Shown: positions 34,041 through 35,565 of the stretch, piece by piece
Position numbering within the stretch: the first letter of the stretch is position 1
Layout: each line of letters opens with the position of its first letter
From: Escherichia phage Barry
Sequence record: LR880803
Reading direction: 5' to 3' (one strand)
DNA: 64,000 nt
Made by a program: the position numbers and the translations under genes
Notes under the pieces: model-generated
Databases searched by the model: none
What the model saw: the letters and a program-made list of their open reading frames with translations, nothing else
Told to the model about the DNA's origin: nothing

Positions 34041-34163
34041 CAGATTTTTTATAAGGCTACTGCCATCCTTCCATACCTTACCTTACCACACCTAACCATA
34101 CCTAACCAAACTACACCATACAATACCTTGTTAAAAGACCCTCTTAAAGACCTTTTAAAAAGG
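34041..34163. repeat. direct repeat copy A (~120 bp) with pentanucleotide NNACC tract
   Basis: Tract atacc ttacc ttacc acacc taacc atacc taacc then ttaaaagaccctcttaaagaccttttaaaaagg; ~75% similar to 35301-35443. Confidence 0.6.
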
Positions 34164-34190
34164 AGCCTCCGAAGAGGCTGCCTAGTCAAC

Positions 34191-34631
34191 TTAGAAAGGT
34201 TTTCTACGTTGCTTGTTAATGTTAGCTTTCATAGCAGCTAAATGGTTTTGCTGTTCAATTAGTCGTGAACGTTCTTGATGGCTAAGTGCCATAGTGTTCA
34301 CATTCTCAATTGCTTGAGTGGCTTGCTTTAAAGCTCGACCAATCTTACCAGACATTTTACGTTTTGCAATAGTTGCTTGATGCTTAGGTTCAACCACACG
34401 ATAACCAACACCCATTGAAGCAACCAGATAAATCTTCTCTTCTTTAAGAAGCTTCTCAATAAACTTCTCAAGTCGGTTTAGACGTGTAAGCGCATAAGCC
34501 TTCATTTCATCTTCGTACTTAACAATGTCACCTTGATAAGTTGGCTTCACAATACCTAAGAAGGTGTCCATCTCAGAATGTGATACAGTGTCACCGTAAC
34601 TAAACTTTGCTGCTAATGCTTTCGTATTCAT
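34191..34631 (-). CDS. hypothetical protein (first gene of repeat-flanked cassette)
   Basis: 146-aa ORF followed on the minus strand by a terminator hairpin (gcctcttcggaggc plus T-run). Confidence 0.45.
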   Translation of the reverse strand: MNTKALAAKFSYGDTVSHSEMDTFLGIVKPTYQGDIVKYEDEMKAYALTRLNRLEKFIEKLLKEEKIYLVASMGVGYRVVEPKHQATIAKRKMSGKIGRALKQATQAIENVNTMALSHQERSRLIEQQNHLAAMKANINKQRRKPF

Positions 34632-34633
34632 AA

Positions 34634-35236
34634 TTAAACGTTACCTTCTGAAATAACTTCTACAGAAAAACGACCAAAGCGTGGACGCCAATCACCTACA
34701 CCACAAAGGTTACCAGCATTTTCAAGAACCATCAGAAGTTCCTCTTTGGTGATTTGCTCTTCATCGAACATCAAACCGAACTCTACAGACCAGTCACGGA
34801 AGATTGGACGGTAGCTCATAACTCGTGCTGTACCAATCTTAACAGACTTAGCATAGATGAAGTCTGGATTCTTAGCAAGTTCTTGTGGGTTTGCTGGGCA
34901 GTTCTTGATAGTCATTGGGAAGACTACATCTGTCAGCATAATGGCTCGGTCAATTACCTTACCAAGTTTATTGAGTTTTGCACCAGACTTGATACAAGCC
35001 TCAATCATCTCACCGTTCATAACAAAACCTAGTTGGTCATCGTAGTAGCAAGAAGTTACCAGTTGACTTTCTGCTAAGAGCGCATAGTCTTCGTCAGTCT
35101 TTTTACGTTTACTGGACAGAGACTTGTGATATTTTGTCAGAGGGTTTAATGGGTCTGACAGAGTATCTGCATGGCTCAGGAAAGGACGAGTACCAGTGAT
35201 TTTGATATTTAACAGTTTCATAGCATTTAGCTCCAC
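34634..35236 (-). CDS. hypothetical protein (second gene of repeat-flanked cassette)
   Basis: 200-aa ORF with SD gtggag; no recognisable motif. Confidence 0.45.
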
Positions 35237-35300
35237 ACTTTAGTTGATTGTTAAGTTGTTTGTAAAGAACCCTCAACAGAAGACTCTTTAGAAACTTGGT

Positions 35301-35443
35301 AGATTTTTAACGTGGCTACTACCATCCACCCATACCTCACATCACCATACCATACCTGACCGGACCTAACCAAACTCCACAGCACCATACATCACATCAC
35401 ACAACCTTATTAAAAGACCCTGTTTAAAGACCTTTTAAAAAGG
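35301..35443. repeat. direct repeat copy B with pentanucleotide NNACC tract
   Basis: Shares agattttta..ggctact.ccatcc..catacc..taaaagaccctgtttaaagaccttttaaaaagg with copy A. Confidence 0.6.
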
Positions 35444-35460
35444 TAAGTCTCATTTTAATG

Positions 35461-35565
35461 TAGCTGAGACTAACTACCCATACCAAACAGCACCGCACTA
35501 TGCCTTACCCCACCTCACCGAGCCTCGCCCCACATCACTTAAAAAACCCTTTTCAAAGACTCTTA
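35461..35565. repeat. partial third copy of the C/A-rich pentamer tract
   Basis: Tract ttacc ccacc tcacc gagcc tcgcc then aaaaaacccttttcaaagactcttaag. Confidence 0.45.

Follow-up and report, generated by a model that had tools for sequence, protein, structure and literature searches.

The locus described here lies in a 64,000-nt stretch of the genome of Escherichia phage Barry (record LR880803; in what follows, the window), within a leftward operon for replication and nucleotide metabolism in which all local genes are on the minus strand. The genes for DNA polymerase and DNA ligase (35788-36924) are followed by a 48-aa ORF, two 5-nt-periodic tracts, a 195-aa gene, a 146-aa gene, a third tract, a 127-aa gene, and the genes for an HTH regulator, DHFR and thymidylate synthase. 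An initial annotation of this DNA had recognized a two-gene cassette bracketed by repeated modules, and this anatomy is borne out by the sequence. As set out below, the two genes are assigned to vipr and vap1 of the VIPR system and the tracts to its vrRNAs, giving the order U1, U2, vipr, vap1, D1, all on the minus strand (Table 1). The 48-aa ORF (35638-35784, minus strand), which separates the VIPR promoter from the ligase gene, is hydrophobic and belongs to phrog_22006 (unknown function); SUSP1 has a different small ORF at this place.

Table 1. Elements of the locus, related tracts elsewhere and predicted targets. Positions refer to the window unless another locus is named.
Feature	Position	Strand	Remarks
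Promoter, sigma-70-like (TTGACA, 16 nt, TATACT)	35603..35630	-	11/12 consensus; 5' of vrRNA U1
U1 leader hairpin	35533..35572	-	inverted repeat; stem CATCACTTAA/TTAAGTGATG, loop with GAGTCTT...AGGGT
U1 guide, 11 YNNGG	35478..35532	-	NN = GG GA TC GA GG AA AT GC GC TT AT
U1 tail, type a	35443..35477	-	H-type pseudoknot GTAG / AGTCTCA / CTAC / TGAGACT, read from sequence
U2 leader	35405..35442	-	CTTTTTAAAAGGTCTTTAA..GGGTCTTTTAATAAGG; 20-mer in common with D1 leader
U2 guide, 15 YNNGG	35330..35404	-	6 units with degenerate GG; NN = TG GA GA AT GC GG TT TA CC CA AT AT GA GA AT
U2 tail, type b	35298..35329	-	pseudoknot GTGG / GGTAG / CCAC / CTACC
vipr	34634..35221	-	195 aa, RAMP (Cas7-like)
vap1	34191..34631	-	146-aa Vipr-accessory protein
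Terminator-like hairpin	34157..34182 (hairpin 34179-34164)	-	AGCCTC-TTCG-GAGGCT, then TTTTT; 3' of vap1
D1 leader	34126..34162	-	
D1 guide, 11 YNNGG	34071..34125	-	NN = AT AT GT TT TA AT TA GT AA AA AT
D1 tail, type b	34039..34070	-	pseudoknot AAGG / GGCAG / CCTT / CTGCC
Felix O1 orphan vrRNA	L038 1340-1470 (NC_005282.1 ~57724-57854)	-	
Satellite vrRNA-like tract	L032 13975-14090		
Satellite vrRNA-like tract	L033 3854-3933	-	
Satellite vrRNA-like tract	L035 1860-1949	-	
U1 predicted target	L034 12186-12218		19/22 NN; recombinase gene
U2 predicted target	L035 12483-12527		26/30 NN; recombinase gene
D1 predicted target	L035 3868-3900		20/22 NN; intergenic, ~30 nt upstream of hypothetical gene

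Reading the sequence directly, we found the three 5-nt-periodic tracts where the initial annotation had placed them. The copies at 34041-34163 and 35301-35443 had been described as having common flanks, and they share both an identical 20-mer (34144-34163 and 35424-35443; two matches in the window versus 0.04 expected by chance, a similarity beyond coincidence) and the 14-mer GGCTACTRCCATCC, which occurs with zero mismatches solely at 34055 and 35314. The tract at 35461-35565, taken at first for a partial one, is a complete module that differs from these two copies in both leader type and tail type. The NNACC unit stands as regards its periodicity, but YNNGG, or GGY plus NN, on the minus (gene) strand is the better reading, with NNACC as its complement; the tracts then become (YNNGG)11, (YNNGG)15 and (YNNGG)11, each with a kept leader hairpin and a kept 3' pseudoknot tail. 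A scan of the whole window placed its highest C and lowest G content at the three tracts (starts 34046, 35310 and 35463), and a CC or AC at a 5-nt period was found, on either strand of the 64 kb, only there. The window belongs to a Felixounavirus: it matches Escherichia phage vB_Eco_Tribble, of that genus, at 99% identity, and a search of the Tribble genome (88.8 kb), the closest complete one, found no tract beyond these three. The periodicity of the tracts is real and far beyond chance.

When the three modules and two modules of relatives were aligned, mean column identity was 68%; nearly all invariant columns correspond to the G/T of GGY or to the flanks, and the NN positions differ. The likeness among the copies is limited to the leader, the GGY positions and the tail. 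Some GenBank records of relatives mark the region merely as 'repeat_region', and the tracts are unmentioned in the 2010 Felix O1 genome paper. An Rfam search of 34000-35650 returned nothing at gathering score; in the window as a whole this score is reached only by tRNAs, 23 genes for which are clustered at 1257-6508, as is typical of Felixounaviruses.

One of the three possibilities raised in the initial annotation was that the modules are duplicated regulatory regions, such as promoters, in which case the pentamer tract would be a DNA-level binding array or a curvature element that controls the genes downstream. Each downstream-most module does lie 80-95 nt upstream of a gene start, with sigma-70-like hexamers nearby. 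However, the promoter-like sites lie beyond the repeats (35630-35603 and 34019-33991), and the number of modules per spacer ranges from 1 to 3 among close relatives, including near-identical phages whose genes are unchanged. In addition, hypervariable NN combined with fixed GGY is the pattern of a guide and not of an operator, and the modules of SUSP1 yield discrete small RNAs that co-purify with Vipr (10.64898/2026.04.26.720920, 10.64898/2026.04.26.720927). The proposal is therefore unsupported and we consider it extremely improbable, the position of the modules just 5' of gene starts being incidental. The related suggestion of a binding array for a phage factor holds in spirit, except that Vipr, the product of a gene lying between the tracts, would bind the array in its RNA form.

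The sigma-70-like site 5' of U1, which is the same in SUSP1 and nearly the same in Felix O1, probably drives a vrRNA-vipr-vap1 unit. The terminator-like hairpin between vap1 and D1, also present in SUSP1 and with a T-run that overlaps the D1 leader, may complicate the transcription of D1. Directly 3' of the D1 tail (33985-34038) there is an inverted repeat of 19 nt, imperfect (AAATAAGCTATAAAATCTG / CAGGTGTTATAGCTTATTT) and with a T-run after it. This repeat encloses the TTGACA of a 10/12 promoter-like site of the 127-aa gene, and could be an operator or a terminator.

We parsed 32 unique vrRNA bodies from 22 loci, comprising the window and 21 related ones. Across these bodies the leaders, GGY positions and tails are kept and the NN positions vary, so that a module can be described as a leader hairpin (of two types), a repeat tract and a tail (of two types). 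The U1 leader element is also found 5' of SUSP1 vrRNA1, and such a hairpin is possibly a processing signal; for the U2 leader a stem TTAAAAG/CTTTTAA is possible. Both tail types show the complementarity of an H-type pseudoknot. Type a is kept in 32 copies across loci, and type b, which in satellite elements (see below) reads GTGG / GTCG / CCAC / CGAC, has compensatory changes in both stems among the D1, U2 and satellite variants, that is, the stems covary. Judged from these pairings, a pseudoknot tail is predicted for both types. The unit counts of 11, 15 and 11 are inside the published range of 9-16. Degenerate units, with TG or AG in place of GG, are present in the window and likewise in SUSP1, and in the six U2 units concerned they may weaken Vipr binding.

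The product of the 195-aa gene is identical at 191 of 195 residues (97.9%, E 2e-128) to PDB 36pp_D, the 'SUSP1 Vipr protein', and the profile of its family matched one PDB entry only, again 36pp (E 5e-80). An AlphaFold2 model built from a 44-sequence alignment has a confident Cas7-like fold (pLDDT 95.9), for which the nearest PDB folds are Csm3/Cas7 subunits, from CRISPR complexes of types III and VII. All published RNA and DNA contact residues, H17, K33, R39, E71, M72, K82, G87, K88, R138, C173, D177, W178 and R179, are kept, and these include the GGY-contact residues H17, R138, D177, W178 and R179. The contact residues fit a numbering from the ATG at 35221, which therefore is the true vipr start, and not the GTG at 35236. 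At residue 175 (window 34697) both 36pp_D and the window Vipr have V, and the structural preprint lists T175 in the pyrimidine pocket, a mismatch that is probably a matter of numbering or typing.

Vap1 is identical at 145 of 146 residues (99.3%) to the product of the SUSP1 gene in the same position; it has no relative in the PDB and only three in a word-based protein search. Neither Vipr nor Vap1 has a match in Pfam, and in PHROGs they match solely families of unknown function. Five explanations considered early for the tracts (a TRAP-like attenuator, primase-site arrays, an antisense Rho rut site, two-tetrad G-quadruplexes and replication iterons) were dropped after the match of Vipr to 36pp and the finding, described below, that target information resides in NN.

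VIPR (Viral Interference Programmable Repeat) has been described in two preprints (bioRxiv 10.64898/2026.04.26.720920 and 10.64898/2026.04.26.720927, 2026), so that the literature behind its mechanism consists of preprints. The system comprises an accessory Vap protein, the minimal RAMP protein Vipr, with an RRM core, a G-loop and a thumb, and vrRNAs, which are encoded in the spacers on either side of vipr and on its strand and are made of 9-16 YNNGG units and a conserved tail of about 40 nt with a pseudoknot (10.64898/2026.04.26.720920, 10.64898/2026.04.26.720927). One Vipr protomer binds each repeat and sequesters G1, G2 and Y3, with thumb-induced base flipping in the Vipr filament (10.64898/2026.04.26.720927). 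The NN dinucleotides pair with double-stranded DNA, one target base being skipped per unit, and transcription is silenced; reprogramming of NN redirects silencing in SUSP1, where vap1 enhances protection (10.64898/2026.04.26.720920, 10.64898/2026.04.26.720927). Expression of the vrRNAs (~100 nt), their co-purification with Vipr, and silencing were reported for SUSP1 and P. fulva only, and an NN match of at least 80% was counted as a natural target, natural targets being reported to have the skipped base at the wobble base of the codon (10.64898/2026.04.26.720920, 10.64898/2026.04.26.720927).

We are highly confident that Barry carries a VIPR system of type II, from the SUSP1 clade, that would work as in SUSP1. 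For the phage itself we infer the mechanism, as well as transcription and activity of the locus, from the 98-99% protein identity, the identical RNA architecture and the rule-conforming predicted targets. The two loci have the same promoter, the same two types of leader and of tail and the same gene order, and in both genomes they are placed with the DNA ligase gene on one side and the 127-aa gene on the other. In contrast, Barry has two vrRNAs upstream and one downstream, whereas SUSP1 has one upstream and three downstream, and the NN guides are all different, so the predicted target sites also differ.

By analogy, each tract would give rise to a vrRNA of roughly 100 nt, on which Vipr protomers, one per YNNGG unit, would sequester the GGY bases and present the NN dinucleotides. 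These would pair with double-stranded DNA, skipping every third target base, with the pseudoknot tail capping the Vipr filament, and the target-bound complex would block transcription. Vipr resembles Cas7/Csm3 of class 1 CRISPR systems in its RAMP fold, in the assignment of one protomer to each short RNA segment and in thumb-induced base flipping, but VIPR is without a repeat-spacer array, adaptation genes or the second RRM domain, and has a period of 5 nt, with three bases sequestered and two read per unit. VIPR skips one target nucleotide per unit, whereas CRISPR reads its target contiguously with every sixth base flipped. In agreement, the tract unit is 5 nt, we found no repeat-spacer structure with repeats of ~25-40 nt, and no cas1 or cas2 was detected among the neighbour genes.

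Candidate targets were sought in satellite elements. The Felixounavirus baseplate gene (window 20455-21252) has a match in 474 of 5426 complete E. coli genomes, at 70-93% DNA identity. The matches, annotated as 'phage baseplate protein', belong to elements of ~11-12 kb whose insertion site is either the yciI-tonB interval or a DUF72 gene near yecN/yecD. Besides the baseplate gene, these elements encode a large serine recombinase, a DNA methyltransferase, a tape-measure protein and the products of small ORFs. These elements are the satellite of the VIPR preprint. IS elements often interrupt the satellite tape-measure gene.

Six satellite loci, out of the 474 satellite-bearing genomes, were scanned with the 32 guides. 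With a skip of one base, 16 of the 32 reached an NN match of at least 80%, against 0, 1 and 0 at skips of 0, 2 and 3. All three Barry guides have a predicted target under this rule (Table 1), and in 300 shuffles of unit order none equalled the observed score for any of them. The D1 score has to be read against a raised chance background, since this guide is AT-rich: the best shuffle reached 18/22, as did the DHFR region of Tribble. In both recombinase matches the skipped base falls on codon position 3, as calculated from the annotated gene coordinates and as in the preprint. A self-target of at least 80% is absent from the window, where the best matches are 15/22 for U1, 18/30 for U2 and 16/22 for D1. 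In two of the satellite loci, L032 (an O111 remnant) and L033, no window guide has a target of at least 80%, and a search of IMG/VR for the exact full-length 1-nt-skip patterns of U1 and D1 found none.

The three guides would thus be aimed at an E. coli satellite element that has Felixounavirus-like tape-measure and baseplate genes, two at its large serine recombinase gene and one at an intergenic site 5' of a gene of unknown function. Since the guides appear to be directed at this satellite, the VIPR system most likely shields the phage from the parasite.

The site of TRAP (trp RNA-binding attenuation protein) in the trp leader is made of (G/U)AG triplets with 2-nt spacers, in about 11 repeats. 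The tracts, with a triplet and a 2-nt spacer repeated 11-15 times, resemble it, and could accordingly be RNA sites for an oligomeric regulator, acting by attenuation or by repression of translation on the flanking genes, in a TRAP-like autoregulatory leader that acts in cis and not in trans. The binding of one Vipr protomer per repeat and the terminator-like hairpin that adjoins the D1 module would both suit such a leader. Nevertheless, NN matches satellite DNA far above chance and under the 1-nt skip only, the redirection of silencing by NN reprogramming in SUSP1 would not be expected of it, and no TRAP-like domain was found. Although both systems place an oligomer on tandem triplets with 2-nt spacers, in about 11 repeats for TRAP, the TRAP oligomer is a closed ring, its action on leader RNA is in cis and its spacers are uninformative, whereas VIPR is an open helical filament whose spacers are the guide and which would act on DNA in trans. 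TRAP and Vipr are unrelated in sequence and in fold. We give a cis-acting leader hardly any credence, and retain trans-acting guides as the preferred reading.

The locus might also be decaying or inactive, with intact protein genes, degenerate guides and live targets that are gone. In this case one could point to the 6 of 15 U2 units without a clean GG, to the lack of a perfect target for any window guide in the six satellites, where the best matches are 86-91% and not 100%, and to Felix O1, which shows that the locus can be lost. Against this, Vipr and Vap1 are 98-99% identical to the SUSP1 proteins with all contact residues kept, the preprint accepts an NN match of at least 80% as a natural target, and the scan covered only six of the 474 satellite-bearing genomes. 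Decay is very unlikely in our view, and a functional VIPR system remains the better explanation.

The distribution of the system was examined by tblastn. A Vipr that is at least 90% identical is encoded in 117 phage records, the surrounding region being shared by 259. The cassette is variably present among relatives. In Felix O1 both vipr and vap1 are absent, and the stretch from the ligase gene to ORF87 is reduced to the promoter, a single leader hairpin, a single vrRNA of 11 units and a tail of type b. The idea of a recombination-acquired moron cassette consequently holds in so far as the genes are facultative, with a single module left at the junction in Felix O1. From its sequence, this state looks like the product expected from recombination between upstream and downstream modules. 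Against the E. coli satellite panel the best score of the Felix O1 orphan guide was 16/22, which was reached by 233 of 300 shuffles; Felix O1 infects Salmonella.

vrRNA-like tracts are also found in the satellites, three of the six loci carrying one (Table 1), with a covarying type-b tail (GTCG/CGAC stem). No homologue of Vipr or Vap1 was detected by tblastn in these three tract-bearing loci. In 152 E. coli genomes there is a stretch of 77 nt that matches the tract and tail of U2. It is conceivable, if somewhat doubtful, that vrRNA modules are mobile and act in trans independently of vipr, either loading on the Vipr of a helper or co-infecting phage or serving as decoys, and that the guides against the recombinase block satellite excision or integration.

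More distant homologues of Vipr, at 37-39% identity, are encoded in IMG/VR contigs of metagenomic phages and flanked by sense-strand (GGCNN)n tracts, and the chromosome of Rhodococcus globerulus encodes a 43%-identical homologue with five tracts downstream. As homologues this distant (37-43%) are flanked by GGYNN tracts, arrays and protein travel together over large distances. Two of these loci, from a metagenomic phage (L026, 2930-4510) and from R. globerulus (L030, 5112-5668), have arrays of 2-5 tracts in which the GGCNN units follow each other with great regularity, and in the former a kept linker …AGGTCGCTGTGGTCTTT… between tracts resembles the GGTCTTT box of the Felixounavirus leader. VIPR has been proposed to be older than CRISPR.

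The Barry locus is a further instance of an already described system, from an experimentally characterized clade, and not a new principle. It nevertheless reproduces the published 1-nt-skip rule independently, with different guides and on a small satellite panel, and makes concrete predicted targets available for the three Barry guides. The comparison with Felix O1 indicates that vipr and vap1 can disappear from between the vrRNA modules on either side, after which a guide persists as an orphan. VIPR is a recent addition to RNA-guided DNA recognition, in which a Cas7-like protein is combined with a non-contiguous pentamer code.
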